Positions 17,937 through 46,374 of a stretch of 48,120 nt of DNA are shown here, piece by piece. The stretch lies in contig DATIVB010000433.1 in assembly GCA_035466375.1 (NCBI GenBank), forward strand, positions 1 to 48,120, given 5' to 3'. Both the position numbers and the translations under genes were made by a program. This stretch comes from Chondromyces sp. (lineage in GTDB: Bacteria; Acidobacteriota; Thermoanaerobaculia; Thermoanaerobaculales; Sulfomarinibacteraceae). How positions within the stretch are numbered: position 1 is the first letter of the stretch; every line of letters starts with the position of its first letter. Under the pieces are notes generated by a model that saw only the letters and a program-made list of their open reading frames with translations, searched no databases and was not told where the DNA came from.

Positions 17937-18150
17937 GTGTCTTCTGAAGCCGTTCGATCGCGGAGGTTTAACCTTTGAGTCTGTGCTATTCTGTCGAAAA
18001 TCGGGAACCACCGAACCAGCATGGATCACGGTGTCGGGACTGTGCACACACGACGGTCGGGACTCGGGATCGAGCACGGTTCGGACCGACACGGATCGGG
18101 GGGGCCCGGAGAAAAATCGCGATGCAACCGCCGTCGCCGGGAGAGGCACT

Positions 18151-19002: not shown

Positions 19003-19023
19003 GCGCCAGTGGCTGGATCTGAG

Positions 19024-20333: not shown

Positions 20334-20334
20334 G

Positions 20335-22705: not shown

Positions 22706-23707
22706 TCATGCAGGGTCAGGATTCCTCGGCCCGCCTTCCCGGTTCTTCTCGGGCACGACTCTGCGCGGGGCGTCGCGTGGTGCAGCCTGTTTCGGATTGG
22801 CAGCGAAGAAATCCCAGATCATCTCGCTCGCGTCGACGTCTCTGCTGGTCGTGCCGACGAGCAGGCGGGGCAAATACTGGAACCCGCCGGGCCAGGTGTG
22901 ACCGGTGCCCTCGACCGTGCACAGGATGACCGGAGAGCGGCAGGCGTCGAAGCCGCGGCACGACACGTTGCCCTTCGCGAAGGTCTCCTTCGACGTGTCC
23001 TTGCAGTCGTTCAGGGACCTCCAGACCTCGGCGGTTGCCGGCGCCGAGAGGAGATCACCGCCTCCTCCGGTCTCGCCGCCGTCGAAGGGAACGATCCGGT
23101 CCTTCGTGCCGTGAAAGTCGATCACCGCAATCGGGTGGTCCGGCTTGCACTGCGCCGCCATCTTGGGCGCCATCTGGCCGGCCACCGTGGCGATGGCCGC
23201 AAGCCGTCCGGACAGCTCGCAGCCCAGCCGATGGGTGAACGCACCGCCGTTGGACATGCCGGAGGCGTAGATTCGGCGCGGGTCGATCGTGTACCGCTCC
23301 ATCAAGGTATCGAGCAGGGCATCGACGAATCCCACGTCATCGATGCCGAGCTCCTCGGCTTCCCCGGTCCCGTGGAGCGCGTTCCACGAGCGTCCGACCC
23401 CGTCCGGGTAGACGACCATGAATCCGTGGCGATCCGCGACCTCGTCAAAGCCGGAGAGCTTTGCCTGGTCGTCGCCCTGCCCGTGGCGGCCGTGGAACGA
23501 GAGGACCAGCGGCATCGGTTTCCCTGCATCGTGCCCCTTCGGGAGGTGGACCAGAAAGGTCCGCGTGCGGCCGCCGTACTCAATCGACTCCGTGGGGTTG
23601 TCGCTGGCCTCCTTCGATTTCGAATCGCGGCGCTGGTTTGCAGTCGCACATGAGGCGCCGGCAACGAGAGTGAGCACCAAGACCGTCGTCAACGTGATTG
23701 ATCGCAT
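22706..23707 (-). CDS. Exported esterase, PHB-depolymerase/LpqC-like family
   Basis: Signal peptide ending LVAGASC (possible lipoprotein). Motifs LVLSFHGRHGQG, VVYPDG, and nucleophile elbow GMSNGG. Confidence 0.8.
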   Translation of the reverse strand: MRSITLTTVLVLTLVAGASCATANQRRDSKSKEASDNPTESIEYGGRTRTFLVHLPKGHDAGKPMPLVLSFHGRHGQGDDQAKLSGFDEVADRHGFMVVYPDGVGRSWNALHGTGEAEELGIDDVGFVDALLDTLMERYTIDPRRIYASGMSNGGAFTHRLGCELSGRLAAIATVAGQMAPKMAAQCKPDHPIAVIDFHGTKDRIVPFDGGETGGGGDLLSAPATAEVWRSLNDCKDTSKETFAKGNVSCRGFDACRSPVILCTVEGTGHTWPGGFQYLPRLLVGTTSRDVDASEMIWDFFAANPKQAAPRDAPRRVVPEKNREGGPRNPDPA

Positions 23708-23750
23708 GATCGTATCGCCTTTCAGTCTGGGAAACCACGTGCCGGGCCGT

Positions 23751-24959
23751 CTATTCCGGATCGAAGGCGGTCCCGAGCTCCTCCTCGCGCACGGTTTCGA
23801 CCGCGGACTCCGGAAGGCCGAGCAGCTTGGTCGTGACCTCGGCGTTGTGCTCGCCGAGAAATGGTCCGCGCCGGCGGACCACCCAGGGCTCGCCGACGAA
23901 GCGGAACGGCATGCCGGGATAGCGCCCGCTCCCGTCCTCGGCCTCAGAGAACCAACCGCGCGCCTTCAGGTGCGGGTCCGATACGAGGTCCGCCGGGTCG
24001 AAGACCGCTCCCGCCGGAACTCCGGCCGTCTGGAGCTCGGCCATGGCGGTGCGGTGGTCGCGCCGCCGCGTCCAGTCGGCGATCATGTCGTCCAGGCTGT
24101 CGTGCGCTCTCATGCGATCGAACGGGGACGCGTAGGCCGGATCGTCTGCCATCTCCGGACGCCCGAGGGCCCGGCAGAGACAGCGCCACTCCTCATTGGA
24201 GCGCACCGCCAAGACCACCCAGCGGTCCGCGCCCTTGCATGGGTAGCAGCCTCGTGGGGCGGCGGTGCGGTGCCGGTTGCCGGTCGGTTCGGGTGCGACG
24301 CCGGTGATCGCCGTCTCCAGGAACTCCATGCCGGCCAGGGTACTGATCGCGGCCTCGAGTTGGGAGACCTCGACCCGCTGTCCGCGCCCGGTCTTCTGCC
24401 GTCGAACCAGCGCTGTGAGTGCCGCACAGGCCCCGGCGACACCGTTCGTGACATCCATTTCGCGGATGCGGCGGGGCGGCGAGCCCGGCGAGTAGGCGGT
24501 GAGTGCCTGCAGTCCCGACAGCGGTTCGATGCCCCCACCGTAGCCGCCGTACGGTGCGTCGGGGCCGGTGCTCCCGAATGCCGGCATCTGCACGAGGATG
24601 AGGTCGGGGCGCTGAGCCGCCAGCACCTCCCAGCCGAGTCCGAGCCGCTCGAGCACGCCCGGACGCGACGAGTCGACCACGACATCGGCCCAGGCGACGA
24701 GGGTCAGCGCACGGTCGCGGTGATCCGCCCGCTCGAGGTCGAGGGTCAGGGATTTCTTGCCGCGGTGCAGCTGCCAGAAGCGCGGGTGGGTGTCGTAACG
24801 CCGGTCCACGAGGTGGCCGCCCCGCATCCCATCGAGGCGGTGCGGATACTCGATCTTGAGCACCTCGGCGCCGAGGTCGGCGAGGATGCGGGTCGCGTGG
24901 GGACCCGCCCAGTCGTGGCTGAGGTCGAGGACGTTGACGCCCTCCAGCACCGCCGTCAT
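23751..24959 (-). CDS. Family III CoA-transferase (CaiB/BaiF/Frc-like), canonical paralog
   Basis: N-terminus LEGVNVLDLSHDWAGPHATRILADLGAEVLKIE. Catalytic-Asp motif MDVTNGVAGACAALTAL...GRGQRVEVSQLEA, with the Asp codon at 24453-24455. ATG overlaps the upstream stop as ATGA. Confidence 0.85.
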   Translation of the reverse strand: MTAVLEGVNVLDLSHDWAGPHATRILADLGAEVLKIEYPHRLDGMRGGHLVDRRYDTHPRFWQLHRGKKSLTLDLERADHRDRALTLVAWADVVVDSSRPGVLERLGLGWEVLAAQRPDLILVQMPAFGSTGPDAPYGGYGGGIEPLSGLQALTAYSPGSPPRRIREMDVTNGVAGACAALTALVRRQKTGRGQRVEVSQLEAAISTLAGMEFLETAITGVAPEPTGNRHRTAAPRGCYPCKGADRWVVLAVRSNEEWRCLCRALGRPEMADDPAYASPFDRMRAHDSLDDMIADWTRRRDHRTAMAELQTAGVPAGAVFDPADLVSDPHLKARGWFSEAEDGSGRYPGMPFRFVGEPWVVRRRGPFLGEHNAEVTTKLLGLPESAVETVREEELGTAFDPE

Positions 24960-26170
24960 GGTGACGCCTCCGATGCCGCATGGACCACACCGTCGGCGAT
25001 CAGCCCCGCCACCTCGGGGCCGGTCAGGCCGAGCGCCGCCGTGAGGACCTCCTCGGTGTGCTCGCCGAGCAGCGGCGCCCTCCGGTGGACGGCCGGCGCG
25101 CCGGCGACCCGGAAGGGCTCGCCGGCGACCACGTGCTCTCCGGCAGTGGGGTGCTCGAGGCGGTGGAAGAACCCCCGTTCGCGGTGGTGCGGGTGCTCGA
25201 GGACCTCCTCGGGATGGTTGAGCACGCCGAAAGCGAGGCCGCGCCGCCGGCCCTCGGTGAGGATCTCCTTCCGGTCGTGACGGTCGAGCCACGGTTGCAT
25301 GAGCGTCTCGAACTCTGTGCGCCGTGCCATGCGACCGGCGACGTGGCGGTACTCGGGGGCCTCGAGGCGCGGCTCGTCGAACATCTCGACCGCCCCCAGC
25401 CAGTTGCGGATCGGGCCGCCGATGACCGCGGCCCAGCCGTCTCGGCACGGGTAGAGCTGCCACGGCACCAGGGTGTGCTGATCGCCCTTGCGCCGCGCCA
25501 CCTGGCCATTGTGCAGGTTCTCGACGAGTGCGATCTCGATGTTGTCGAGCATGGCCTCCTGGATCGACACGTCGACCCAGCGTCCGCGGCCGCCCAACTG
25601 GCGGCCGTACACTGCCGCCAGCGCGCCGATGTAGGCCGCCATTCCGGCGCTGCAGTGGGCCACCTGGGGCCCGCCGGCGAGGGGCTCGCGGTCGGGATCG
25701 CCGGTGAGATGCATCCCGCCGCCGGTGGCATAGGCCACGATCTCGTCGCCGAGAAAGCCGCGGTACGGCCCATCCTGGCCGAAGGGTGTGACCGACACCA
25801 TGATCAGACCCGGATGCTCGGCCGCGAGCTCGTCGTAAGCGAGCCCGGTGCCGGCGAAGTGGCCGGGCGCCGAGCTCTCGATGACGATGTCGGCGGTGAG
25901 GGCGATCCTGCGCGCGAGGGCCTGACCCGCGGTTTGGCTGAGGTCCAGGGCGACGCTTTCTTTCGAGGTGTTGAGCCACAGGAAGGGGATGCTGGTCTCG
26001 ATCCCCGGCTCGCCGGCAAAGGGTCCGGTGCTGCGGGTCGGGTCGCCGTCGGGCGGCGGTTCGATCTTGATCACCCGCGCGCCGTAGGCGGCGAACAGCT
26101 TGCCGCAGTAGGGCGCCGCCACGCCCCCGCCGAGCTCGACGACGCGCAGGTGCTGCAGCGCGCCGCTCAA
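24956..26170 (-). CDS. Family III CoA-transferase paralog with His at the catalytic Asp position
   Basis: N-terminus LRVVELGGGVAAPYCGKLFAAYGARVIKIE. The equivalent motif reads AHCSAGMAAYIGALAAV...GRGRWVDVSIQEA, with the His codon at 25655-25657. TTG start overlaps the SDR stop as TTGA. Confidence 0.8.
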   Translation of the reverse strand: MSGALQHLRVVELGGGVAAPYCGKLFAAYGARVIKIEPPPDGDPTRSTGPFAGEPGIETSIPFLWLNTSKESVALDLSQTAGQALARRIALTADIVIESSAPGHFAGTGLAYDELAAEHPGLIMVSVTPFGQDGPYRGFLGDEIVAYATGGGMHLTGDPDREPLAGGPQVAHCSAGMAAYIGALAAVYGRQLGGRGRWVDVSIQEAMLDNIEIALVENLHNGQVARRKGDQHTLVPWQLYPCRDGWAAVIGGPIRNWLGAVEMFDEPRLEAPEYRHVAGRMARRTEFETLMQPWLDRHDRKEILTEGRRRGLAFGVLNHPEEVLEHPHHRERGFFHRLEHPTAGEHVVAGEPFRVAGAPAVHRRAPLLGEHTEEVLTAALGLTGPEVAGLIADGVVHAASEASP

Positions 26171-26961
26171 GCCGATCCTCCACTCTCATCCGGCCCGCTC
26201 CGCTTCCGCCGGCGCCGGCGCCCACCGAAAGGGGCCAGCACGGGATTGAGCAGAACGCAGTCCTCCGGCAGCTCGATCAGGTAGGCGATGAAGTCGGCCA
26301 CCCGCTCCGGCGGCAGAGCGTCCGGCGGCATCGGGACCGGGCCGTTCTGCTCCCAGAGCGGGGTGGCGACGGCGTCGGGCAGCAGGGTGTGGACCCGGAC
26401 ACCGCTCCGCCCCACCTCCTCCATCAGCGACTCGGAGAAGCCCCGGACCGCGAACTTGGAGGCGCAGTAGGCCCCGTCGAACGCACGCCCGCGCAGGCCC
26501 GAGGTCGAGGACAGGTGGATGATATGGCCGGACCTCGCCTCGAGCATCGCACCCAGCACCGCCCGAGTGGCCAGGAAGGTGCCGCGGAGGTTGACGGCGA
26601 GCACTCTCTCGAACTCCTCGGCCGAGGTCTCGGCGAGCGTCTTCGGCCCGCTCCCCGCGGGGCGGAGGATGCCGGCGGCGGTGACCAGGACGTCGATGCG
26701 GCCGAAGGCGCCGCGAACCTGCGCCGCCATCGCCTCCATGTCGCGCTCCGATGTCACGTCACATGCGATCGAAAGGACGTCGGCGGATCCCCGGCCTGCG
26801 TCGCGGGCCGCGGTCTCGGCGCTCTGCAGACGGCCGGGGTCGAGCTCTACGAGACAGAGGTTGAAGCCCCCTCGGGCAAGTGCGACGGCGGTTGCACGGC
26901 CGATGCCGCCGCCCGCTCCGGTGATGACGGCCGCCTGCCTTTCGGGTACGTTCTCGTTCAC
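26167..26961 (-). CDS. Short-chain dehydrogenase/reductase (SDR), paralog of the 19024 gene
   Basis: AAVITGAGGGIGRA and YCASK motifs. GTG start overlaps the upstream stop as GTGA. Arg-rich C-terminal tail. Confidence 0.8.
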   Translation of the reverse strand: MNENVPERQAAVITGAGGGIGRATAVALARGGFNLCLVELDPGRLQSAETAARDAGRGSADVLSIACDVTSERDMEAMAAQVRGAFGRIDVLVTAAGILRPAGSGPKTLAETSAEEFERVLAVNLRGTFLATRAVLGAMLEARSGHIIHLSSTSGLRGRAFDGAYCASKFAVRGFSESLMEEVGRSGVRVHTLLPDAVATPLWEQNGPVPMPPDALPPERVADFIAYLIELPEDCVLLNPVLAPFGGRRRRRKRSGPDESGGSA

Positions 26962-28493
26962 GAAGCCACCTCTCCTTCGAGATCTTTTTCGAGCCACCAG
27001 ACCTCGAGCCCGCCGCGCGGGTTGGCCTGGTAGCCCCATTCGCCTACGTCGTCGATCTGTCCGATCTCCGGGCCGAAGGGGTTGGCGGTGCCGAGGAAGA
27101 GGCCGCGCGGCGTCGACATCATGCGACGGGCGCCGTAGTTGAACGGGTTGCCGAAGCCGTTCCGGGTCACCGGCTCCCAGATCGCGCCGTCCCGGCTGCG
27201 CCAGAGGTCGAAGCCGCCGATCTTGTCGGGCAGATCGGCGATCGGAAGGTAGCGGAAGATCTGCGCCATACGCTGCGGCCAGGTGTCGAGGGGCAGGTAC
27301 GAGAGGAACACGCTCCAATCGTAGGTGCCGACGTACAGCCAGCCGTCGTGCGAGCACGAGTTCCAGAGATAACCTGCGAAGAAGTTGTCGAAGCCAGGCC
27401 CGAGTCGGGAGAGCGGCTCCTTGAAACCGTCGGGCGTGTGCCTCGGCGCGCCGACGAGGAGCTCCCACGAGTCGTCGTCGGCGATTCGCAGCAGCTCCGC
27501 CGCCGCCGGTCCGATCCGGTAGGTGCGGTCGTAGCCGCCGTGCTGGATGCCGCTGCCGATGTAGAGACGACCGTCGTGGGCGCACATCGTGGCGACGCCC
27601 TCGTTGAGCGGCCCGCGGTAGGCGCCCTCGGTGAGAACCCGCGTCCACTGGTAAGGTGGTTCGCCGCGTGCGGCGGTCTTCCACACCTGGAAGCCCCGGG
27701 GGTTGACGGTGCCCGCGTACAGGTGGTCGTTGAAGACCGCGAGGTCGAAGACGGCGACGTTCCCGGGATCTCCGAACGAGGGGCTGTTGGCGAGCCGCCA
27801 CGGTCTGTTCGCCGGGTCGGAGTTCTCGAGCACCAGGGCGAGGCCGGCCGTACAGTCCTCGACCCCGAGGTGGCTGAGGCCCTGCCAGCCGGCGGATCGC
27901 CCTGCCGGCGATGTGTAGAGGCGGTCCTTGAAGGTCCTGAGCGCCCGGTAGGTGTTGACTCCGGGGTCGGCCTCCTGCCGGCTCACGGGCTCGAATCGGC
28001 GCCCGTCCTCCGAGCGCAGGATGATCGACGGCTGCCCGCTCCGCGACGGCGCCCAGGTGCAGACGTAGAGCGCCGGAGCCTGGTCGCTGGCGCCCCGAAA
28101 AACGCTCATTCCGCGGTAGCCGATGTCGCGCGGGACCTGAACGCCGCCCTCGAGCTCGACCCACGGCGAGCGGAAGACCTGCCGCCACGATCGGACGTGC
28201 GGGTCGAACCTCCAGATCTCGGCGCGGCGGTCGATCTCGTAAACGTCGTCGGGGCACCGTACCGGCCAAAAGTTCAGGTTCGGCGGGCGGGCGGCCTTGA
28301 TGCTGCAGAGGTTGGCGCGGGTGGTGCCGACGTACAGGGCCCCCGCGAACCAGGCCATGGAGTGGGCGTAGGCGTTCCAGCCGTCGCCGAAGCCGCCTTC
28401 GGCGATGCGGACGAAGGGGTTCTCGACCGGCGCCGCGACCAGCGGGGCGGCGCGCCGCAGAGGCTCGACCGGGGGTCGTCGCTGCCGTTTCAC
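26958..28493 (-). CDS. Cytoplasmic 7-bladed beta-propeller-like protein (hypothetical)
   Basis: 511 aa with no signal peptide. Seven spaced LY-x-G-T/S-type motifs (ALYVGT, ALYVCT, RLYTSP, HLYAGT, RLYIGS, WLYVGT, GLFLGT). Asp-box-like SxDGxxW/F elements (SRDGAIW, SEDGRRF). GTGA overlap at the start. Confidence 0.7.
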   Translation of the reverse strand: MKRQRRPPVEPLRRAAPLVAAPVENPFVRIAEGGFGDGWNAYAHSMAWFAGALYVGTTRANLCSIKAARPPNLNFWPVRCPDDVYEIDRRAEIWRFDPHVRSWRQVFRSPWVELEGGVQVPRDIGYRGMSVFRGASDQAPALYVCTWAPSRSGQPSIILRSEDGRRFEPVSRQEADPGVNTYRALRTFKDRLYTSPAGRSAGWQGLSHLGVEDCTAGLALVLENSDPANRPWRLANSPSFGDPGNVAVFDLAVFNDHLYAGTVNPRGFQVWKTAARGEPPYQWTRVLTEGAYRGPLNEGVATMCAHDGRLYIGSGIQHGGYDRTYRIGPAAAELLRIADDDSWELLVGAPRHTPDGFKEPLSRLGPGFDNFFAGYLWNSCSHDGWLYVGTYDWSVFLSYLPLDTWPQRMAQIFRYLPIADLPDKIGGFDLWRSRDGAIWEPVTRNGFGNPFNYGARRMMSTPRGLFLGTANPFGPEIGQIDDVGEWGYQANPRGGLEVWWLEKDLEGEVAS

Positions 28494-29422
28494 GGGCGGT
28501 CCAGAATGGGCGTCGCATCGCGCGCCGTGCGGGCGGCGCCGACGTGAAGAAAGCGGGTCACGGCATCGACCAGGGGTTGGGGCTGAAGCGCCGGGAAGAA
28601 GTGACCGACGCCGGGCACCACGACCCGCTCGATCGCAGGCTGCACGGCCGCCAGCCCCTCGAGGCTCGGCATCGTGTAGGTGAGCTCGCCGTACACGGCC
28701 AGAAGCGGCAGCTCCAAGGCTGCGACAGCTTCGTGTGACAGCCCTGCCGGGTCCTTGACGTCGTCGGCCAGGGAGGTGGTCTTCAACAGCTGCCGCCAGC
28801 GCTCGGCGGAGCGCTGCGAGCCGTTCCAGCTCTCGAACGGGAGAAACACCGTCGGGTCGGAACTCTGCCGCGGTCCGCGCCGCGCCGACCGCTCGGCGAG
28901 CGCCTCGAGCAGCCGGTAGTCGATCTCCGCGTCGCCCTCGAGGACAATGCCGAGCTCGCTGTAGGTCCGCTCGAGGGATTCCCAGTTGGGGCAGTCGGAG
29001 AGCCGGGGCCGCGGCTGGAAGAGCCGCAGTATGGCGTCGACCAGGGTCAGGCTGGCCACGCGTCCGGGGGCGAGCACGGCGGCGTGCAGGGCGACGGCGC
29101 CGCCGAAGCTGTGGCCGACGAGGTGGGCGCGCTCGACTCCGAGGTGGTCGAGCAGGGCCAGCAGGTCGGCGGCCATGGCGGCGGTCGTGTAGCCGGCGGC
29201 GGTGATCTCGCTGCGACCGTGGCCGCGGAGGTCGTAGGCGGTCAGAGGAAAGAGCTGCCCGAGGGGGCGCCCCACACCCCAGTACCAGAAGGCCAGGTTG
29301 GCGCCGAGGCCGTGGATGAGCACGACCTCGGCGGCGGGCGCGGCTGGGGTCGCCGGCCCGCCCGCAGGGGGGTCGAGCCGCTCATAGGCGAGGCGGACAC
29401 CGGGCAGCACGGCGAACGGCAT
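28490..29422 (-). CDS. Alpha/beta-fold hydrolase
   Basis: VVLIHGLGAN, nucleophile elbow GHSFGG and C-terminal GVGHF. ATG lies 2 nt after the upstream stop. Confidence 0.8.
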   Translation of the reverse strand: MPFAVLPGVRLAYERLDPPAGGPATPAAPAAEVVLIHGLGANLAFWYWGVGRPLGQLFPLTAYDLRGHGRSEITAAGYTTAAMAADLLALLDHLGVERAHLVGHSFGGAVALHAAVLAPGRVASLTLVDAILRLFQPRPRLSDCPNWESLERTYSELGIVLEGDAEIDYRLLEALAERSARRGPRQSSDPTVFLPFESWNGSQRSAERWRQLLKTTSLADDVKDPAGLSHEAVAALELPLLAVYGELTYTMPSLEGLAAVQPAIERVVVPGVGHFFPALQPQPLVDAVTRFLHVGAARTARDATPILDRP

Positions 29423-29424
29423 TC

Positions 29425-31044: not shown

Positions 31045-31357
31045 GGGTGGCGCCCGTCAGGGTCGTGTCGAGGAAATCGACCAGCTGCTGCACGGTCAGG
31101 TCGTCGACGTAGCGGCCGTCGTGCATCAGGAGCTTTTCGAACGGCAGGTCCCGGCGCTGGAACCGGCCCTCGAGGCTGACCACGAGCTGCACCACGTCGA
31201 TCGACTCGAAGGCGAGGTCCTCGATCAGTCTGGTGTCTGGGCCGATGTCGCCCGAGAAGTCGGTGTCCCAGTCCGCGGTCAGGTCCTTGAGGATCTCGAG
31301 GACCGCGGCGTTGATCGTCGTCCGGTCGAAGCCACTCGAAACGTTCGTGCTGCTCAT
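31037..31357 (-). CDS. Discrete acyl carrier protein
   Basis: 106 aa. Phosphopantetheine-site motif LAFESIDVVQL with the Ser codon at 31202-31204. ATG preceded by GGAGG lying in the end of the upstream gene. Confidence 0.8.
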   Translation of the reverse strand: MSSTNVSSGFDRTTINAAVLEILKDLTADWDTDFSGDIGPDTRLIEDLAFESIDVVQLVVSLEGRFQRRDLPFEKLLMHDGRYVDDLTVQQLVDFLDTTLTGATHA

Positions 31358-31361
31358 CAGT

Positions 31362-35968: not shown

Positions 35969-35976
35969 CGGACGCC

Positions 35977-38900: not shown

Positions 38901-41900
38901 GGCCCGTCGCGCGGGGAGGTTCGGCCGGGTCGTCGCCTGCGGCGACGGCGCGGGCGATCCGTCGCGAGATGTCGTCCAGGGTCGGTGCGGTTGTCAGCGC
39001 CTCCATGATGCCTTGAAGGTGCCGCTCCATGCCGCCGGGGAGCGAGCGCTGGAGCTCGCCGAGAATCTCCACGCGTTTGATCGAATCGATGCCGAGGTCC
39101 GCTTCGAGCGATGCCTCCGCATCCACGAGCTCCGCCGGGTAACCCGTGCGATCGACCACGATCGCGACCAGGCGGGCACGGATGTCGGCCTCGCTCGGCG
39201 GCTCGTGTTCCGCCTCGGCAGGAGGCGGCGCTGCGGCTCGGCCGGCGGCGATCGGCGGAGTGGGGACCTCGTCGAGCACGGGTCGCGCGGCGATCGGCTC
39301 CTCGAGCAGCGGCCCTGCGTCGGCGGTGAAATCCGCCGTGATCGTGGCCTGAGGCAGAGCCTCGCCGAGGCTGTTCGATGCCGGAACCGCCGATCCGAGA
39401 TAGGCGAGCATGATCCGTTCCTGGCTCTCGATGAGGTGCTTCATCGAGCCCTGGAACTCGCAGATCACGCGCTCCACGTCGGGAGAGGAGAGCGCCTGAA
39501 GAGGTGAGGGAAGGGGTTCCGTGACGGCGCCTGGGAGTGGCGTGGCCGGTGTGGCGCCGTCGAGCCGCGGTGCCGCACCGTCCGCCGCTGCCGAGGCCGG
39601 CGACGGTGTCGGCAGTGCGAAGGGAGCCCGGCGAACGGACTTCTCGTTGAGAGGCCGGACGCCTCCGCCGCTGACCATCCAGGTCGAGGGAGGCAGCGGC
39701 GTGTGCGCCGTCTCTTCGAGCAGGCGGTCGAGGACGAGCTGTCTGGCGTCGCGGCCGGAAAACAGGGGATCGAGGTTCACCGGCACGCCGTGCGCCGCGA
39801 GGGCGCCGAGGACGTGCAGGAGCTGCACGAGGCCTGAACGGCCGGGTCGATCAAGGGGGAGTGCGAGGTGCGGCCGGCCGTCGAGGATCTGTCCCACGAG
39901 GCCGGTCAGCACTGTCTTCGGTCCGACCTCGAGGAACAGCCTCGCGCCGGCCTGGTACATGGCCGTCACCTCGTCGGCGAAACGGACCGGAGTCACCAAA
40001 TGGTCGGACAACAGCTCCCTGACGGCTGGAACTTCGTCCGGGTACGGACCGGCAGTGGAGTTCGAGTAGACCGGCAGCTGCGGAGCTGCGATCGGCACGG
40101 ACTCGAGGATCTCCGCCAGGCGATCGCGGGCGGCCGAAACCAGGGGCGAGTGGAAGCCGCAGCTGACCGGAATCGTCCTCGCCTCGATGCCGCGCCCGCG
40201 CAACCGGTCGAGGGCCTCTCCGATCGCAGCATCGGTGCCGGAGATCACGGTCTGCAGCGGTGCGTTGTAGTTGGCGACCCACAGCTCGTCGATCCCCGCA
40301 AGGGCCGCGGCGGTGGCGTCGCCGTCGGCGCTCACGGCGGCCATGGTTCCGAGATCGCGGCTGGCCGCCTCGACGATCCAGCGCCCGCGCGCTTCCGACA
40401 CGAGGGCCAGTTCCTCTGAGCTGAGCACACCCGCCGCGGCGAGCGCCGCGTACTCGCCGTAGCTGTGGCCGGCCACCATGTCGGGAGCAACCCCGAGGTC
40501 GGCCAGCAGCCGGAAGCCGGCACGCTCCACCGCGCCGAGCGCTGGCTGCGCCACGCGGGTGTGACGCAGCGCGTCGGCGCGCTGCTGCCGCTCCTCGGCG
40601 GTGAATGCCGGCGGCGGGTAGAGGTAGGCCCCCAGGGGCACGTCGAGCACCGGAGCGAGTGCCCGTTCGGCGCACTCGATCTCCTCACGGACCACCCTGA
40701 AGTGGACGCACAGGTCGCGGAACATGTCGGGGTACTGGGACCCCTGCCCCGGGAAGAGCAGTGCCACCCGGCCGGCGCCCGCCAGCGGTTCGGGGGTGTA
40801 CCACGCCCCCTCCGGATCGGTGAGCTCCCGGTCGGCGGCGATCGCGTCCCGGAGAGCCGAGAGACGCGCTGCCAGAGTGGCCGAATCCGTGGCGACGAGG
40901 GCGGCGGTGAGACCGGGAGGGGCGCTGCGGGCGGCGTTCCAGCACGAGACCGCAAGGTCCCGAAGCCGTGGTGCGGCGCCCCGCTCGAGGTCGGCGGCGA
41001 TGGCTTCGATGCCGGCGATGACCTCGCGTTTGTCGCCGCGGAACAGCAGCAGCTCCCCAGGCCACGCACCGGCGGTGGCCGGCTGCGGCAGGCTCGGCAG
41101 GTCGCCGGTGTACTCCTCGAGGGTGACGTGGAAGTTGGTGCCGCCGAAGCCGAAGGCGCTGACGCCGGCGCGCCGCGGCTGATCGCGGCTCCCCCGCAAC
41201 CAGGGGCGCAGCTCGCTGTTGACGTACAGTGGGCCGTCTCCGAAGCGGGCCTTGGGGTTGGGCCGCGTGACGTTGAGGGTGGGCGGCAGCACCTTGCGCT
41301 GCAAGGCGAGCGCGGTCTTGATGACCCCGGTGACTCCGGCGGCGCACTTGGTGTGGCCGATCATCGACTTCACCGAGCCGACGGCCGCGGACGAGGGCCC
41401 TGCGCCGGCCGCTTCCAGCACGCCGGTCAGCGTTTCGGCTTCGGCCACGTCGCCGGCCGCCGTGCCCGTGCCGTGAGCCTCGAACAGCTCGACGGAGGCG
41501 GGCGAGTACCCCGCCTGCCGGTAGGCGCGCTCGACGGCGCGCATCTGGCCCTGCGGCCGGGGGGCTGTCATGCTCCTGCCGCGTCCGTCGCTCGAGCCGC
41601 CGACCCCCTGCAGCACCGCGTAGATGCGGTCGCCGTCGCGTTCGGCGTCGGCGAGCCGTTTGAGCACCACCACCGCCAGCCCCTCGCTGATCACGATGCC
41701 GTCGGCTTCCGCGTCGAAGACGCGGCTCCTGCCGCTCGGAGAGAGGGCCTGGGTCTTGCTGAAGCACAGGTAGCCGAACGGATTCTGGACCGTGTCGACG
41801 CCGCCGGCCAGGACCAGGTCGCTGCGCCCGTCGGCGAGCTCCTGGGCGGCGAAGTAGATGGCGCCGAGCGACGAGGCGCAGGCGGCGTCAACGGTCAGGT

Positions 41901-44547
41901 TGATTCCTCCGAGGTCGAAGCGGTTCGCAGCCCGCCCGGCGGCGACGTTGAGCAGGAGACCCGCGAACGAGTCTTCGGTCCACTCGGGAAGGCGGTCACA
42001 TGCCTCCGCCGGCAGGTTGTCGAAGAGTGCGGGCAGCGCGGCGCGGACGGCGTACCCGTTGCCGAGGTCGGCCACCCCGCCGCCGGCGCCGAGAATGATC
42101 GACGCCCTCTGCCGCGGGAAGTCCCGGTCCATCAGGCCGGCGTCTGCGAGTGCCGCGCGAACCACCTCCAGCGTCAGCAGCTGGAGCGGCTCGATCGATC
42201 TGAGCGTGGTGGGCGGGATGCCGTAGGACAGGGGGTCGAAGGGGATCTCGGGAAGGAACCCCCCCCAGCGCGAGTACACCTTGTCCCGGGCCGCGCGGTC
42301 GCCGTCGAAGTAGCGGCGCCAGTCCCACCGCTCCGGAGGCACCTCGGTCGTCGTGTCGACACCGTTGAGGATGTTGTCCCAGAACGTCTGGAGATCGGTC
42401 GCCCCCGGCAACAGGCAGGACATGCCGACGATGGCTACCGCGAGGGGCGGGTCGGGAGGTTCGGCGTCCGCGGGTTGCACGGTGGAGGCCTCGCTCAGCC
42501 AATCGGTCGCGCCGGCCGAGACGCCGTGGTGCAGCTCGGCCATGGTGACCACCCGATCGACCAGTGCGGCCGCCTGGCCGATCATGTACATGCCCTCGCT
42601 CGCCTGCCGCTCCGGGCCGATGTCGACGAGCTTCGGTGCGGCTTCGCCGTCGCGTGCTTCGGGATTGCGATCGAGCCCCTTGGAGGCGACCCGCAGCTTG
42701 CCCAGGTTGAGCGCCTCGAGGGTGAGGCGCACCTCGTCCTTTGACCGGCCCTCGCCGAGCAGGCGGGCCTTTTCCGCCAGGAAGCGATCGGCGAAAGGCG
42801 TCATGGCACAGCGGGTCGCGTGGCCCGGGCCGGTTTCGAGCAGGGTGGTCCGCGTGCAGCCGACCGCGACAGCCTGGAAGCCGGGGAGGATGGCGCCGGA
42901 GCTGACGGCTTCCTCGGTGGCCAGGTAGGCAGTCCCCATCAGGACGCCGATCTTGGCGCCGCCGGCCGCGAGGGGAGCGGCGAGCGCCGCCACCATGGCC
43001 GCGGAGCGGGCGTCGTGGATGCCGCCGGCAAAGAGCACGTGGCACTCGTCGAGGACCCCGGGGCTCGCGGTCTCCGCGAGGAGGCTCACCATCTGGTTCC
43101 ACAGCACGAAGCTCGAACGCGGGCCGACGTGGCCGCCGCACTCGCGCCCTTCGAAGACGAATCGCCGCGCTCCCTGGTCGAGGTACTGCCCGAGGAGCCT
43201 CGGCGACGGCACGTGCAGGTAGCAGGCGATACCGTCGGACTCGAGGGCGCGGGCCTGGTCGGGGCGGCCGCCGGCTATGAGGGCGAACTTCGGGTGGATG
43301 CGCCGCACGACCGCGAGCTGTTCCTCGCGGAGCTCGAGAGGCACGAAGCCGAGGATCCCGACACCCCACGGCTGATCCCCGAGGAGCTTCGCCGTGTCAC
43401 TGAGAATCACCTCCGCCTCGTCGGCTCTCAGAAGGGCGAGCGCGATGAATGGAAGACCGCCGGCCTTCGCCACCTCGGCGGCGAAGGGCGCGACGTCCGA
43501 CACCCGGGTCATCGGTCCCTGGACGACCGGGTACCGCGTGCCGTGTGTGCGCGCGAGGGCGGCGTCAGGCGCCAGAGGCGCCGTCGAGCGCGCGATGCGG
43601 AGGTGATCCTGGACGGAAGCCAGGAGACCGGTCACCACGCTGCCGGTCGTGCGGAAGCGCGCGGCGAGCGAGGCGGCGAAGGAAGCGTCCTGCCCGAGCG
43701 GCCAGGCCTGATCGGACCGCCAGCCGATGGCGCCATCGTTCCGCGTTGACTCGTCGCCAAGAAACGTGACCCATCCGACGTGGTCTTTGGCGGCCAACAG
43801 CTCGAGATAGCGTTGTTTCAGGAGCTCGGCCCCGGCGTTTGCCGGGCGGGGGAAGAAGCGGAAGCTCCGACCCAGCTCCGCGCCGACAGCCACCGTTTCA
43901 CCACCGTCCATCGCAGCGACCGCGGCGCGAACGTCGGCAGGGAGGGTGGACTCGCGGATCAGCGCGAGCTCGTCGGCGAGCACGACGCCGGCAGCACCCG
44001 CGGCGGCGCACGCGGCCGCGGTGTGGAGGCCGATACCGCCGCGAGCCCAAACCGGCAGGTCGAACCTGTGCAGCAGCTCCTGCAGCAGCACGAAGGTGGT
44101 CTCCTCGTCGGTCCTGCCGCCGGCCTCGCTCCCCTTGGCGATCAGGGCGGCCACCTCGGCCGACAGCATGGACTCGGCGTCCTCGACGGAGCTGACCTCG
44201 ATGCACAGGACGAGCCCGCGCTCCCGGGCCGCCGAAACGACATCTCGTGGCACCGTAACAGGGGCGTCGCCCGGTCCGGGAGCGATCACCAGCCAACCGG
44301 ACGTCGCGGGCAGGAGCGAGATCAACTCGGCTGCGACGGCCTGGTCACACGTGGACTCGATCCGCAGCCCGATCTCTCCAGATCCCAGCCGCACGAGCTG
44401 GTTGACGGCGGCTCGGGCAGTTTCGACGTCGACGAGGCAGCCCAGGTCGAGTATCCCGACAGCCCCGGCGCGGCTCCCGGCAACGGCGATTGCCGCGTCG
44501 TCGAGCCCTCGTGGCGTGAGAACCATGATTCGAAACTCAGGTTTCAT
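35977..44547 (-). CDS. Iterative type I PKS / PfaA-HglE-like megasynthase: NMO-like - ER - KS - AT - ACP - ACP - KR - DH
   Basis: 2856-aa ORF. ATG 44547 preceded by AGGAGG at a 7-nt spacing. Domain motifs are listed in the sub-features below. Confidence 0.95.
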   Translation of the reverse strand: MKPEFRIMVLTPRGLDDAAIAVAGSRAGAVGILDLGCLVDVETARAAVNQLVRLGSGEIGLRIESTCDQAVAAELISLLPATSGWLVIAPGPGDAPVTVPRDVVSAARERGLVLCIEVSSVEDAESMLSAEVAALIAKGSEAGGRTDEETTFVLLQELLHRFDLPVWARGGIGLHTAAACAAAGAAGVVLADELALIRESTLPADVRAAVAAMDGGETVAVGAELGRSFRFFPRPANAGAELLKQRYLELLAAKDHVGWVTFLGDESTRNDGAIGWRSDQAWPLGQDASFAASLAARFRTTGSVVTGLLASVQDHLRIARSTAPLAPDAALARTHGTRYPVVQGPMTRVSDVAPFAAEVAKAGGLPFIALALLRADEAEVILSDTAKLLGDQPWGVGILGFVPLELREEQLAVVRRIHPKFALIAGGRPDQARALESDGIACYLHVPSPRLLGQYLDQGARRFVFEGRECGGHVGPRSSFVLWNQMVSLLAETASPGVLDECHVLFAGGIHDARSAAMVAALAAPLAAGGAKIGVLMGTAYLATEEAVSSGAILPGFQAVAVGCTRTTLLETGPGHATRCAMTPFADRFLAEKARLLGEGRSKDEVRLTLEALNLGKLRVASKGLDRNPEARDGEAAPKLVDIGPERQASEGMYMIGQAAALVDRVVTMAELHHGVSAGATDWLSEASTVQPADAEPPDPPLAVAIVGMSCLLPGATDLQTFWDNILNGVDTTTEVPPERWDWRRYFDGDRAARDKVYSRWGGFLPEIPFDPLSYGIPPTTLRSIEPLQLLTLEVVRAALADAGLMDRDFPRQRASIILGAGGGVADLGNGYAVRAALPALFDNLPAEACDRLPEWTEDSFAGLLLNVAAGRAANRFDLGGINLTVDAACASSLGAIYFAAQELADGRSDLVLAGGVDTVQNPFGYLCFSKTQALSPSGRSRVFDAEADGIVISEGLAVVVLKRLADAERDGDRIYAVLQGVGGSSDGRGRSMTAPRPQGQMRAVERAYRQAGYSPASVELFEAHGTGTAAGDVAEAETLTGVLEAAGAGPSSAAVGSVKSMIGHTKCAAGVTGVIKTALALQRKVLPPTLNVTRPNPKARFGDGPLYVNSELRPWLRGSRDQPRRAGVSAFGFGGTNFHVTLEEYTGDLPSLPQPATAGAWPGELLLFRGDKREVIAGIEAIAADLERGAAPRLRDLAVSCWNAARSAPPGLTAALVATDSATLAARLSALRDAIAADRELTDPEGAWYTPEPLAGAGRVALLFPGQGSQYPDMFRDLCVHFRVVREEIECAERALAPVLDVPLGAYLYPPPAFTAEERQQRADALRHTRVAQPALGAVERAGFRLLADLGVAPDMVAGHSYGEYAALAAAGVLSSEELALVSEARGRWIVEAASRDLGTMAAVSADGDATAAALAGIDELWVANYNAPLQTVISGTDAAIGEALDRLRGRGIEARTIPVSCGFHSPLVSAARDRLAEILESVPIAAPQLPVYSNSTAGPYPDEVPAVRELLSDHLVTPVRFADEVTAMYQAGARLFLEVGPKTVLTGLVGQILDGRPHLALPLDRPGRSGLVQLLHVLGALAAHGVPVNLDPLFSGRDARQLVLDRLLEETAHTPLPPSTWMVSGGGVRPLNEKSVRRAPFALPTPSPASAAADGAAPRLDGATPATPLPGAVTEPLPSPLQALSSPDVERVICEFQGSMKHLIESQERIMLAYLGSAVPASNSLGEALPQATITADFTADAGPLLEEPIAARPVLDEVPTPPIAAGRAAAPPPAEAEHEPPSEADIRARLVAIVVDRTGYPAELVDAEASLEADLGIDSIKRVEILGELQRSLPGGMERHLQGIMEALTTAPTLDDISRRIARAVAAGDDPAEPPRATGPEPSVPAVPAADELCARLLAIVVERTGYPAEMVDPEASLEADLGIDSIKRVEILGELQRSLPDGLEQRLQGIMEDLTSAPSLVEIAVRVAAALGSAPPTAADRAEKAPTAPVALPDEPPRTGTAADLPRFRMTAIPIDPPDGGALPDGTVIVTDDGRGAATALVSALRLRGTRAELVDCSDLGPDSGAAALIEALAATDDLVGVVHLAALTPTPSSPELSLTQWRQRLRYETGGFFHLARLALPALGERASENGRPRLMAATILGGDFALGEHGDDEAFPPGHGGICGLAKTLAVEQPMLGVKVVDLDIRESVDDLAGHLLTELLADDGEVEVGWREGQRLTPRPVAAPADGDRSPVLGPESVVLLTGGARGITAEIAVELAEQFRSTLILVGRSPEPAPEDAATAEISDERQLKSALIEERRKHGLPARVTDVEADFRRVIADREIRATFESLAAAGSSFEYHTADVRDPKDVARVLGAVHARHGRLDAVVHGAGCIEDKLLVDKDWDSFERVFETKALSAYLLGKELTAFLGTLRFVAFFSSVAGAFPNRGQADYTAGNEVMNKLAVALAREWSGSPCRVVALNWGPWEKGMANAGVQKQFRARGIEPIPVPDGRSALVRELVSDDPNPVIVLGRGPWQSPPAPRDRRQHEPSGERQPEALPLPAPAPDRPLMAGGSHRSAPAGFSVERILDPSIDLYLDDHRLDGRPVLPMAAALEMMAELAELGWPALSVVGVRELSVLKGIVLPEGNGHFKMVRLDARPLENGDDSGLAVHVEVRDAEEPKLLHYRATVDLATPSVGAADRHQAAAVRDPFPMPVAEAYRKFLFHGHRFAHIEHIDGSTDSGLLARIRPSDPSGCVAGGSGSWLIDPIVFDSGLQLVILWARTVHDVTPLPSRFTRYRRYGPLCTKNGGWVHCELRARAEADARVVRADLIFFEEDGRLLGVLEGLECSASRELNRLASRPPRSAAGGS
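36013..36855 (-). other. PKS-type DH domain
   Basis: LDDHRLDGRPVLPMAAALE (HxxxGxxxxP) and LIDPIVFDSGLQLV. Confidence 0.75.
36988..37830 (-). other. KR catalytic subdomain
   Basis: VVLLTGGARGITAEIA ... FFSSVAGAFPNRGQADYTAGNEVMNKLA. Confidence 0.8.
38632..39186 (-). repeat. Tandem ACP-ACP duplication (two ~107-codon units)
   Basis: LEADLGIDSIKRVEILGELQRSLP occurs twice (Ser codons 39082-39084 and 38761-38763). The two units are recognisably similar at the nucleotide level too. Confidence 0.9.
39868..40785 (-). other. AT domain (GHSYGE; Ser codon 40462-40464)
   Basis: LLFPGQGSQYPDM ... VAGHSYGEYAAL ... VSCGFHSP. Confidence 0.85.
41110..42444 (-). other. KS domain
   Basis: VAIVGMSCLLPGA; TVDAACASS (Cys codon 41878-41880); EAHGTGT; GSVKSMIGHTKCAAG. 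Confidence 0.9.
42508..43545 (-). other. PfaD/FabK-like enoyl reductase (NMO family) domain
   Basis: YPVVQGPMTRVSD ... FEGRECGGHVGP ... LFAGGIHDARSAAM ... VLMGTAYLATEEA. Confidence 0.75.
43843..44547 (-). other. N-terminal NMO/FabK-like TIM-barrel 1 (EAGGR variant)
   Basis: AKGSEAGGRTDEETTF...PVWARGGIGLHTAAACAAAGAAGVVLADELALIRES. An Arg codon at 44113-44115 sits where NMO/FabK enzymes have the GGH His. Confidence 0.6.
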
Positions 44548-44804
44548 CGGGCTGCCTCCTGCTCTTGGGCCTCGCCTGGCACGTCATTGAACACTCTCAT
44601 TGGCCAGCGAATGAACTCGAGCGTGCCTCGCTGCCCATCGCCGAAGCTGTGGCGAGAAAATGCGGCCGGGAGGATCGAGCCTTCCGGGGCGGGTGTTCCA
44701 TCGTCAACAGATGTCTGGGTCAAGGTCTCAGTCTCATTCACCGAATTCAGCTGAATACCGAAAATCTCGCCGCTGGCGAGAGCAGATGAAAGATCTCGGA
44801 TCAT
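44544..44804 (-). CDS. Candidate 86-aa upstream ORF coupled to the megasynthase start (very uncertain; may be non-coding leader)
   Basis: An ORF in the 5' leader ends in ATGA overlapping the PKS ATG. Its GC3 is visibly lower than in neighbouring genes. There is no SD before ATG 44804, and the GTG 44843 alternative lies inside the predicted promoter. Confidence 0.2.
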   Translation of the reverse strand: MIRDLSSALASGEIFGIQLNSVNETETLTQTSVDDGTPAPEGSILPAAFSRHSFGDGQRGTLEFIRWPMRVFNDVPGEAQEQEAAR

Positions 44805-44811
44805 AAAATTC

Positions 44812-44841
44812 GAAGACCGTCCAAATATAGGCGAGGTCTTC
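44812..44841. promoter_or_regulatory. Inverted repeat GAAGACC-N16-GGTCTTC bracketing the -10 box (possible operator)
   Basis: Perfect 7-bp arms at 44812-44818 and 44835-44841. The predicted -10 hexamer lies between them. Confidence 0.3.
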
Positions 44842-44853
44842 ACCGCAAGTCAA
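44824..44853 (-). promoter_or_regulatory. Candidate sigma70-type promoter of the PKS operon (TTGACT-18 nt-TATATT)
   Basis: -35 at 44848-44853 and -10 at 44824-44829 on the minus strand, in the only AT-rich island between the divergent genes. Confidence 0.4.
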
Positions 44854-45058
44854 CTGCGGCGGTTGATCCCCCCTCTGATGCCGTTCGTCTCTGATTCGAC
44901 GCGCACCCGAATCGGCGGTGCGGCGAACTCGGCGGCTCCAGCGCGCCGGGGAATGACGCGTCGACGAGATCGGTTGTCGGAGGCGGCGATTTCCATGCGA
45001 TCTTCGACTCGGAGCGTGGGCGGGCGCGAAACCGCCCTCTCGTCGGGAAGGAAGCACA

Positions 45059-45670
45059 GTGTCTGCAGAGCACGCAACCCGGACGGCAAATTCTGATGAT
45101 GGCGTCATCGTGGTGGTTTCGGGCCTGCCGCGTTCCGGCACCTCGATGGCGATGGCGATGCTGGCTGCAGGCGGGCTGCCCTGCCTCAGCGACGGTCTCC
45201 GGAAGGCCGATGCCGACAACCCTAAAGGCTACTTCGAGTTCGAGCGGGCGAAGAAGCTCGAGACGGACCGCGACCCGGAGTGGCTCTGCGAAGCGCGGGG
45301 CAAGGCCGTCAAGGTGGTGTCCCCGCTGCTGAAGTCTCTGCCCGAGGGCAACACCTACCGGGTCCTCTTCATGCTCCGGGATCTGGACGAGGTCCTGGCA
45401 TCGCAGAAGAAGATGATGGAACGCCGCGGCGAGCGGCACGAAGTTCCGGACGACCGGATGAAGAAGATCTACCGGGACCATCTGGCGAAGGTGGATTCGT
45501 TCATGAAGGGCCGCCCGGACATCTCCGTCACCTACCTCGACTATCGAAGGGTGATTGCGCACGCCCGGGAGACGGCCGGCGAGATCGCCGCGTTCCTTGG
45601 ACTTGAGCTCGATATCGGCCGCATGGCGGCGGCAGTGGACGCGGGTCTCTACCGGAACCGCCGAACCTGA
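45059..45670 (+). CDS. Small PAPS-dependent sulfotransferase-family protein
   Basis: GTG preceded by GGAAGGAAG. 5'-PSB-like loop VSGLPRSGTSM and 3'-PB-like motif FMLRDLDEVLAS (RDxxDxxxS). 203 aa. Confidence 0.7.
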   Translation: MSAEHATRTANSDDGVIVVVSGLPRSGTSMAMAMLAAGGLPCLSDGLRKADADNPKGYFEFERAKKLETDRDPEWLCEARGKAVKVVSPLLKSLPEGNTYRVLFMLRDLDEVLASQKKMMERRGERHEVPDDRMKKIYRDHLAKVDSFMKGRPDISVTYLDYRRVIAHARETAGEIAAFLGLELDIGRMAAAVDAGLYRNRRT

Positions 45671-45738: not shown

Positions 45739-46374
45739 TCACCGGCTCGGTTGTTCGACTACCCGAAGGTACGGTTTCTGCTCGTCCCAACCGTTCGGAA
45801 ATAGCACCTCCGCCTGCTCGTTCGACAGCGACGGCACGATGATGACCTTTTCGCCGTGATGCCAGTCGACCGGCGTCGCGACCTTGTGGCGGTCGGTGAG
45901 CTGGAGGCTGTCGATGGCGCGGAGGATCTCGGCGAAGTTGCGGCCGGTGCTTGCCGGGTAGGTGAGGATCAATCGCACCTTCTTGGCGGAGTCGATGACG
46001 AACACCGACCGAACCGTTGCCGTGTCGTCGGCTGCGGGGTGAATCATGCCGTACAGATCGGAAACGGTGCGGTCGCTATCGGCGATCAGCGGGAAGTTGA
46101 GTGCGGCGCCCTGGGTCTCCGCGATGTCGTCGATCCAGGCGTGGTGGTCATCGATGCCGTCGACCGAGAGGCCGATGACCTTGACGCCGCGGCGGTCGAA
46201 CTCAGGCTTCATCTTCGCGACCTGACCGAGCTCGGTGGTGCAGACCGGGGTGAAGTCCTTCGGGTGTGAGAAGAGCACCACCCAGCTTTCTCCGGCCCAG
46301 TCGTGGAAGCGGATGGTGCCCGCAGTGGATTCTTGAACGAAATCCGGCGCGATGTCTCCGAGTCGAATCGTCAT
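45739..46374 (-). CDS. 1-Cys peroxiredoxin (Prx6-type)
   Basis: LFSHPKDFTPVCTTELG and GLSVD...H.AW. ATG 46374 overlaps the upstream stop as ATGA. Confidence 0.9.
   Translation of the reverse strand: MTIRLGDIAPDFVQESTAGTIRFHDWAGESWVVLFSHPKDFTPVCTTELGQVAKMKPEFDRRGVKVIGLSVDGIDDHHAWIDDIAETQGAALNFPLIADSDRTVSDLYGMIHPAADDTATVRSVFVIDSAKKVRLILTYPASTGRNFAEILRAIDSLQLTDRHKVATPVDWHHGEKVIIVPSLSNEQAEVLFPNGWDEQKPYLRVVEQPSR

Follow-up and report, generated by a model that had tools for sequence, protein, structure and literature searches.

The 48,120-nt stretch of contig DATIVB010000433.1 analysed here (the window; GenBank assembly GCA_035466375.1, deposited as Chondromyces sp. and placed by GTDB in the acidobacterial family Sulfomarinibacteraceae) probably holds a single biosynthetic gene cluster (17983-45670; 16 genes in ~27.7 kb), in which an iterative type I fatty acid/polyketide synthase (FAS/PKS) is accompanied by helper genes that recur beside this core in at least ten bacterial phyla. 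The layout of the core is of a known kind, and neither the product nor the accessory cassette was found described in the open-access literature searched. We tentatively favour an uncharacterised pathway, shared by many phyla, in which a core of the Type M/N/O layout would hand its chain to a discrete acyl carrier protein (ACP); an alkaline phosphatase (AlkP)/NPP-like enzyme, an α/β-hydrolase, a β-propeller and a sulfotransferase (ST) would release and sulfate it, or use sulfate as a leaving group, and an M50-like/HlyD-type adaptor would export the product.

The cluster is built around a minus-strand operon of eleven genes that runs from 44547 down to 22706 in DNA of ~70% G+C; a GC3 frame plot and start-codon mapping resolved the over-long open reading frames (ORFs). 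From the megasynthase gene to the esterase gene, its ten junctions are an 8-nt gap, GTGA, a 4-nt gap, an 8-nt overlap, a 2-nt gap, GTGA, GTGA, TTGA, ATGA and a 43-nt gap. These genes and junctions are exactly those listed in an original prediction made from the letters of the window, whose domain calls were likewise all confirmed by Pfam. The operon is real, and its tight junctions, normal for operons of high-GC genomes, are consistent with co-translation without proving it.

The operon opens with a megasynthase of 2856 aa (35977-44547, minus strand, as are all operon genes below), annotated from Pfam, NCBIfam and motifs. Its domain order is enoyl reductase (ER)-like (residues 1-330), ER (336-623), ketosynthase (KS; 704-1093), malonyl/acyltransferase (MAT; 1264-1555), exactly two ACPs (serines in LGIDSI at ~1822 and ~1929), ketoreductase (KR; 2245-2480) and PKS-type dehydratase (DH; 2567-2841). 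The N terminus (residues 1-623; window 42679-44547) consists of two tandem NMO/ER-like domains; the second contains a FabK-like stretch (336-623, NCBIfam) and the first, more divergent, may be a degenerate duplicate. The catalytic motifs of KS, AT, KR and DH are all intact throughout the core (in the megasynthase, DAACASS, EAHGT and GH for KS, GHSYG for AT, YTAGN for KR and HxxxGxxxxP for DH), and the megasynthase scores 1145 bits against the NCBIfam model for PfaA (TIGR02813, cut-off 1010), in keeping with its first description as a secondary-lipid synthase of the PfaA/HglE type. Next come a stand-alone KS of 467 aa (34565-35968), a 1068-aa protein with an acyltransferase (AT), a PKS-type DH and a C-terminal phosphopantetheinyl transferase (PPTase)-like remnant (31362-34568; Pfam and alignment with orthologues) and, after a 4-nt gap, a discrete ACP of 106 aa (31037-31357) with a weak Pfam PP-binding match, whose 51 orthologues all keep the serine of the FESID motif. 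The remnant was recognized in the segment LLGRLAAKDAARRRL…VSVHF, which aligns with the C-terminal PPTase domain of orthologues of the AT-DH protein, among them one from Tectomicrobia (L002) that matches Pfam ACPS. Because the stand-alone KS retains Cys-His-His (Pfam and motif check), it is a true KS and not a chain-length factor (CLF); both KS domains carry these residues, and no third KS-like domain was found in the operon. The dehydratases are PS-DH/PKS_DH_N domains by Pfam, with no FabA-type DH in the operon proteins, and the window ORFs scanned held no thioesterase (TE), reductase release domain or glycosyltransferase. The absences first predicted (CLF, FabA-type DH, TE/reductase release and glycosyltransferase) thus hold in the ORFs scanned. 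The core contains a complete reducing iterative module (ER, KS, MAT, two ACPs, KR and DH) and a second set with KS, AT and DH that lacks a KR and an ER of its own; by layout, the core is a Type M/N/O secondary lipid synthase, a kind of iterative type I FAS/PKS.

Types M, N and O comprise ER-KS-MAT-ACP2-KR / KS-AT-PPTase / ACP genes with uncharacterised products (Shulse & Allen 2011, File S1, PMC3098273), so the core layout that the original prediction could not match had already been catalogued. Their carriers are Frankia, Renibacterium, Streptomyces avermitilis and Actinosynnema; Chryseobacterium and Chitinophaga; and Dinoroseobacter, Gloeobacter and Parvularcula (PMC3098273), with Chitinophaga pinensis, Dinoroseobacter shibae and Gloeobacter violaceus as example species (PMC3098273, PLoS One 6:e20146). 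The window has the same three-part order, with ER-KS-MAT-ACP(2-3)-KR in the large gene, to which a PS-DH is added, and a discrete ACP directly downstream. It differs in having two ER-like domains and in spreading KS-AT-PPTase over two genes that overlap by GTGA, with a degenerate PPTase part that has no Pfam ACPS match. The assignment to Types M/N/O is by domain layout, KS phylogeny being another criterion of that paper, and the definition covers FAS/PKS genes only, the accessory cassette forming no part of it. In the open-access papers searched, we found neither a cluster with this gene set and a known product nor the accessory cassette, and none of those citing Shulse & Allen also mentions a sulfotransferase. 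Among the types whose product is known, Type P, the Azotobacter ars FAS (ER-KS-MAT-ACP-KR plus a PPTase gene), comes closest in domain layout; it provides the C22-C26 alkyl chains of phenolic lipids (PMC3098273). Type P has the same ER-KS-MAT-ACP-KR large gene, a second gene with an integrated PPTase and no thioesterase. In ars, the phenolic head group comes from two type III PKS genes, whereas the window ORFs scanned held no chalcone/stilbene-synthase-type domain, and in the window a discrete ACP and genes for the AlkP-like enzyme, hydrolase, propeller and ST follow the synthase. The ars cluster of Azotobacter vinelandii is reportedly the subject of a 2008 paper by Miyanaga et al. (PNAS, volume 105, page 871), and its synthase genes are, we take it, ArsA/ArsD.

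The accessory genes belong to the synthase pathway because the ACP, NPP-like, hydrolase and propeller block travels with the PKS across many phyla. Gene tables with Pfam annotation were compared for three relatives, all window proteins were searched by tblastn against 85 loci, and genes were counted within 10 kb of the propeller gene in 48 fully flanked loci. Near the propeller, these loci encode the α/β-hydrolase (41/48), the HlyD-like adaptor (39/48), the NPP-like enzyme (37/48), the ACP (32/48), PKS genes (at least 30/48, a lower bound because several clusters run past the end of the locus), the esterase (23/48), a short-chain dehydrogenase/reductase (SDR; 12/48) and a pair of CoA-transferases (11/48). 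The propeller is found with NPP-like, hydrolase, ACP and PKS genes in Acidobacteriota, Tectomicrobia, Planctomycetota, Nitrospirota, Actinomycetota, Desulfobacterota, Cyanobacteria and Proteobacteria. The order PKS, ACP, NPP-like, hydrolase, propeller is shared in Acidobacteriota, Tectomicrobia/Entotheonellaceae, Gemmataceae, Nitrospirota, Rubrivivax/Nitrosomonas, Acidimicrobiia and Desulfobacterota; in Nevskiales, Rhodobacterales and cyanobacteria the cluster genes are rearranged and still grouped. SDR, CoA-transferase, esterase, methyltransferase, HlyD adaptor and propeller genes recur jointly in several phyla, even where their order is shuffled. Accessory genes that are not syntenic with the PKS in related genomes, which the original prediction had named as evidence against itself, are thus not what was found, and the cluster is no one-off but one member of a large family spanning many phyla.

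The marker gene of this cluster family encodes the β-propeller, a 511-aa protein with Asp-box-like motifs and without a Pfam family (26958-28493), which represents a new propeller family. Its AlphaFold2 (AF2) model (pLDDT 87.8) has a confident β-propeller fold; Foldseek matches were to generic Kelch, BNR, sortilin and GH74 propellers only (TM ~0.35), and a PDB sequence profile search gave no match. First described as an orphan, the propeller has >1850 homologues, ~50% identical across phyla, and a scan of one genome per species placed relatives in 319 species genomes. The nearest are from an Acidobacteriota metagenome-assembled genome (MAG; 79%) and a Ca. Sulfomarinibacteraceae MAG of the class Thermoanaerobaculia (70%), so that the window is probably acidobacterial; a myxobacterial origin, suggested by a MopE-motif protein, was dropped in view of these relatives. 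Among cultured carriers are Nevskia soli, Solimonas flava, S. variicoloris, Panacagrimonas perspica, Sinimarinibacterium spp., Rhodovulum bhavnagarense and Bosea sp. 117. No tblastn match was found on plasmids in PLSDB. The alignment has seven invariant Arg and no invariant His or Cys. This speaks against two roles that were considered and provisionally set aside: that of an aryl-sulfate sulfotransferase, for which a Pfam match and an invariant His were missing, and that of a copper radical oxidase, for which neither His nor Cys was invariant. Many propeller homologues, in metagenomic and cyanobacterial genomes, are fused to a class I S-adenosylmethionine (SAM) methyltransferase (MT) in proteins of ~780 aa; this fusion and that of the CoA-transferases described below support functional links.

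Between the ACP and propeller genes lie those for the AlkP-superfamily/NPP-like metalloenzyme (29425-31044, 539 aa, Pfam PF01663, Phosphodiest) and the α/β-hydrolase (28490-29422, 310 aa, Pfam and NCBIfam). The NPP-like protein keeps its bimetal ligands and Thr nucleophile (D13, T52, D218, H222, D278, H279 and H434) in all 25 sequences compared. The nearest folds to its AF2 model (pLDDT 89.2) are phosphonoacetate hydrolase (PhnA) and NPPs, and its JGI source label is predicted AlkP superfamily phosphohydrolase/phosphomutase. Residues and model point to a putative phospho/sulfo-ester (or C-P) hydrolase or transferase that is catalytically competent. Its C-terminal tail, RLKALGYVE (window 29425-29475), is also invariant. 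This tail resembles the C terminus KKRLRGLGYIS of 64-aa ribbon-helix-helix-like proteins (L090:5358-5552, L091:5537-5731), which other genomes encode next to AlkP-like pairs and the same small ST; the common tail could be a shared docking motif. The α/β-hydrolase has a GHSFGG nucleophile elbow and is a candidate off-loading enzyme. Its matches in the PDB (esterases, enol-lactonases and epoxide hydrolases) are generic only, and it was therefore not assigned as a CurM TE, BioH or RhlA-type enzyme.

Downstream of the propeller gene, the operon encodes a FabG-like SDR (26167-26961, 264 aa, Pfam and NCBIfam), which recurs with the CoA-transferase pair in relatives, and two family III CoA-transferases (PF02515) of 404 aa (24956-26170, TTG start) and 402 aa (23751-24959). 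In a Halieaceae genome, both CoA-transferases form one fused 805-aa protein (L086:2194-4611) in a locus ordered MT-SDR-SDR-CoAT::CoAT-…-HlyD-propeller-ST-…-esterase; this fusion suggests that the two form a heteromer. The last operon gene encodes an exported esterase of the polyhydroxyalkanoate (PHA)-depolymerase type (22706-23707, 333 aa, Pfam Esterase_PHB) with an N-terminal signal sequence, which scores 167.6 bits against NF050058 (NCBIfam, extracellular PHA depolymerase type 1, cut-off 150).

Sulfotransferases provide a clear link between the cluster family and olefin synthases. A PF13469 ST of ~300 aa is encoded in 56/80 genome loci and in 38/48 of those fully flanked, and in 36/80 loci its gene starts ≤400 nt 3′ of the propeller gene on the same strand. 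Its best PDB matches, far ahead of others, are the "activating" ST domains of CurM (4GBM, 5.8e-22) and Ols (4GOX, 1.7e-16). In the window, the propeller gene runs by a GTGA overlap into the SDR gene at the point where many relatives have this CurM-type ST, and a small ST of 203 aa (45059-45670, plus strand, Pfam PF13469/PF00685) lies divergently upstream of the megasynthase gene. A PDB search with the small ST gave no match, and the protein could not be aligned with the CurM-like ST of relatives. Its gene stands opposite the megasynthase start in the two nearest relatives too (65% and 62% identical), where the genes beyond differ, and homologues that are 44-50% identical lie inside the cluster in Gemmataceae, Acidimicrobiia and Rhodothermales genomes (L009, L033 and L044). 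Because the divergent position is kept while the outer flanks change, and because of the in-cluster homologues, the small ST belongs to the cluster. The divergent stand-alone sulfotransferase of the original prediction is a complete small ST, with a 3′-phosphoadenylyl sulfate (PAPS) loop SGLPRSGTS, whose membership is supported by its conserved position. From these sequences we read a non-orthologous replacement of the CurM-type ST by the small ST in the window lineage, with the sulfation step itself conserved.

The pairing of a sulfotransferase with AlkP-like enzymes is recurrent. On other, probably acidobacterial, contigs (L090:5569-10624, L091:3031-12584), a small ST is divergent from two large PF01663 proteins; these loci also hold the 64-aa protein and a ~280-aa membrane protein, and ATP-sulfurylase/APS-kinase, CysQ-like and sulfatase genes adjoin. 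They seem to represent a sulfation locus in its own right, with no PKS.

The cluster extends beyond the operon, and the limits first drawn were too narrow. A plus-strand block of four genes, starting at ~17983, converges on the esterase gene, with 16 nt separating the stop codons. It encodes a class I SAM methyltransferase (17983-19002, start codon uncertain, Pfam and NCBIfam), a second SDR (19009-19818, 269 aa, Pfam), a TPR protein (19815-20333, 172 aa, Pfam TPR and start mapping), the ATG of which overlaps the stop of the second SDR gene (ATGA), and an M50-like membrane domain fused to an HlyD-type periplasmic adaptor (20314-22689, 791 aa, or 784 aa if the ATG at 20335 is used; Pfam and NCBIfam). 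These genes belong to the cluster because they are orthologous to in-operon genes of the Tectomicrobia cluster, with identities of 46% (MT), 54% (SDR), 34% (HlyD) and 26% (TPR). The TPR match is the 518-aa protein preceding the HlyD gene in the Tectomicrobia locus, and the MT match in L002 (46%) is the methyltransferase directly following the propeller. The second SDR is 62% identical to an SDR in L007; the nearest relatives L006 and L007 keep the convergent arrangement, and in Nevskiales, orthologues of the HlyD gene lie directly 5′ of the propeller gene. The MT was considered as a BioC-like primer methylase and rejected (42 bits against a cut-off of 185 for the BioC model; UbiE and ArsM matches were equally weak). 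The M50-like/HlyD fusion is conserved throughout the cluster family. Its M50 motif is HExxH in Tectomicrobia-type loci only, HQxxH in the window lineage (HQLAH, Glu to Gln) and lost in most others, and with this decay the domain seems to have been kept as a membrane module and not as a protease. The M50-like domain resembles M50/daptide-type intramembrane metalloproteases.

In the pathway that we favour, the megasynthase would condense malonyl units into a long acyl chain, C20 or more and largely reduced. A final round of elongation, or a hand-off, could fall to the second KS and AT together with the discrete ACP; the resulting β-keto or β-hydroxy acyl-ACP may be adjusted by the FabG-like SDRs. 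The α/β-hydrolase would then release the chain, the sulfotransferase would sulfate a hydroxyl, and the AlkP-like enzyme and the propeller could act on the anionic intermediate. In some lineages, the MT, the SDRs and a heteromeric CoA-transferase may tailor the free acid. The M50-like/HlyD adaptor would export the product from the cytoplasm, and the secreted PHA-depolymerase-type esterase may act on it outside the cell. The most likely end product is an exported very-long-chain lipid that either carries sulfate or is made with sulfate as a leaving group; we found no characterised counterpart. The modified, possibly sulfated, long-chain lipid of the original prediction survives in that no characterised product matched and the ST belongs to the cluster; it is amended in that the core had been catalogued and the cluster is larger.

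Several observations weigh against this pathway. We infer its chemical steps throughout, and neither the propeller nor the α/β-hydrolase has a specific functional match. The CurM-type ST is absent from the window, where tblastn with the ST of relatives found nothing, and the family of the small ST has at least 7900 homologues and also occurs away from any PKS. The C terminus of the AT-DH protein has no Pfam ACPS match and no other PPTase was found within the 48-kb window; no ABC, MFS or outer-membrane partner of the HlyD adaptor was seen beside its gene in the window. The CoA-transferase pair, the SDRs and the MT occur in a minority of loci and may represent lineage-specific tailoring or a linked salvage module.

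The strongest competing explanation is a dissociated olefin synthase, which we consider clearly less probable. In the ACP-ST-TE tridomain of CurM and Ols, the ST sulfonates the β-hydroxyl, and hydrolysis by the TE with loss of CO2 and sulfate yields a terminal alkene. By analogy, the second KS and AT with the ACP would add a last malonyl unit, an SDR would reduce it to a β-hydroxyacyl-ACP, and the ST and the hydrolase, the latter perhaps helped by the AlkP-like enzyme or the propeller, would convert this to a terminal alkene; sulfate would be the leaving group and would not remain in the product. The match of the propeller-adjacent ST of relatives to both the CurM and Ols STs, in 38/48 loci, fits this scheme, as do the presence of a dedicated ACP, a hydrolase and FabG-like SDRs and the lack of a TE or reductase release domain in the operon. 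In relatives, that ST adjoins the dedicated ACP and the α/β-hydrolase. However, these are separate proteins and not a fused tridomain, and in sequence the hydrolase does not resemble the CurM TE. A CurM-type ST is missing from the window, whose 203-aa ST is of another subfamily that cannot be aligned to the CurM-like type, and the window adds an AlkP-like enzyme and a propeller, which are without a role in the known ST-TE mechanism. Nor would a plain hydrocarbon call for a methyltransferase, CoA-transferases, an export adaptor or a secreted esterase. An olefin synthase therefore suits the relatives better than the window, and the original prediction was right that the fused layout is absent, but the CurM/OLS-type ST adjoining the propeller in most relatives keeps olefin-synthase chemistry a candidate.

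It is rather improbable that the locus is composite, with PKS, ACP, NPP-like, hydrolase and propeller genes as the unit, the SDR, CoA-transferase and esterase genes merely co-transcribed (for example, for hydroxy-acid ester turnover or salvage) and the ST unrelated. The low counts of the CoA-transferase pair (11/48) and the SDR (12/48) in fully flanked loci agree with such an arrangement, as do the 43-nt gap ahead of the esterase gene and the huge small-ST family, often found beside AlkP-like and PAPS-synthesis genes without a PKS nearby. It fits poorly with the recurrence of SDR, CoA-transferase, esterase, MT, HlyD and propeller genes together in several phyla despite shuffling, and with the GTGA, TTGA and ATGA overlaps that join the propeller, SDR and CoA-transferase genes. 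It also leaves unexplained the divergent ST-megasynthase pair, kept in two nearest relatives while outer flanks change, and window-type ST genes inside the cluster in three other phyla.

A conventional pathway, whether a polyunsaturated fatty acid (PUFA) synthase, a heterocyst-glycolipid-type synthase or an Ars-type FAS feeding a type III PKS, is very improbable: the megasynthase passes the PfaA subfamily model, shares KS-MAT-ACPn-KR with PfaA and tandem ACPs with the PfaA/HglE type, and carries PfaD-type ER (NMO) domains, and the HlyD-family adaptor recalls DevB of the heterocyst-glycolipid exporter, but the KS-CLF pair and tandem FabA-type domains of Pfa synthases are lacking, the ORFs scanned held no ACP-TE/thioester-reductase gene, glycosyltransferase, type III PKS, ABC or FtsX gene, and the adaptor scores 41.6 bits against the DevB model (TIGR02971, cut-off 129). 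The original statement that the cluster matches neither the PUFA nor the heterocyst-glycolipid layout is borne out by these differences.

Types M, N and O have been listed with product unknown since 2011, and their core is shown here to travel with a fixed accessory cassette of an AlkP-like enzyme, a hydrolase, a new propeller family, a sulfotransferase, an export adaptor and a secreted esterase. Carriers comprise at least 319 species, among them nitrifiers, glycogen-accumulating organisms of wastewater, sediment Acidobacteriota and cultured Nevskiales and Rhodobacterales. If the sulfation pathway that we favour is correct, the cluster family would represent a new class of envelope or extracellular lipids, sulfated or sulfate-derived, in Nitrospira, Nitrosomonas, Competibacter, Acidobacteriota and Nevskiales, among others, and a new off-loading chemistry, that is, release of the chain from its carrier protein. 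This lipid class may be abundant and unrecognized, and culturable carrier strains exist.

The PKS operon and the ST gene are separated by a divergent intergenic region of 511 nt (44548-45058). A consensus scan located a sigma-70-like promoter, TTGACT-18-TATATT, at 44853-44824 on the minus strand, giving the PKS operon a leader of ~277 nt; the −35 element TTGAC is kept in the relative L088. The leader contains a GC-rich hairpin followed by a T-run at 44781-44765, and this region had no Rfam family match. An upstream ORF (44544-44843, 86-99 aa) that overlaps the megasynthase ATG as ATGA was rejected as a gene, its frame being broken in the nearest relative. Next after the ST gene, on the minus strand (45739-47450), come a 1-Cys peroxiredoxin and a metallo-β-lactamase-rhodanese fusion, the latter presumably similar to persulfide dioxygenase (ETHE1-like); a peroxiredoxin gene is also next after the homologous ST gene in L090. 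Two further plus-strand genes, apparently unrelated to the cluster, encode a 1505-aa protein with a MopE-type metal-binding motif (13371-17888) and a 509-aa protein with a Peptidase_S74 (endosialidase chaperone) domain (19-1548).

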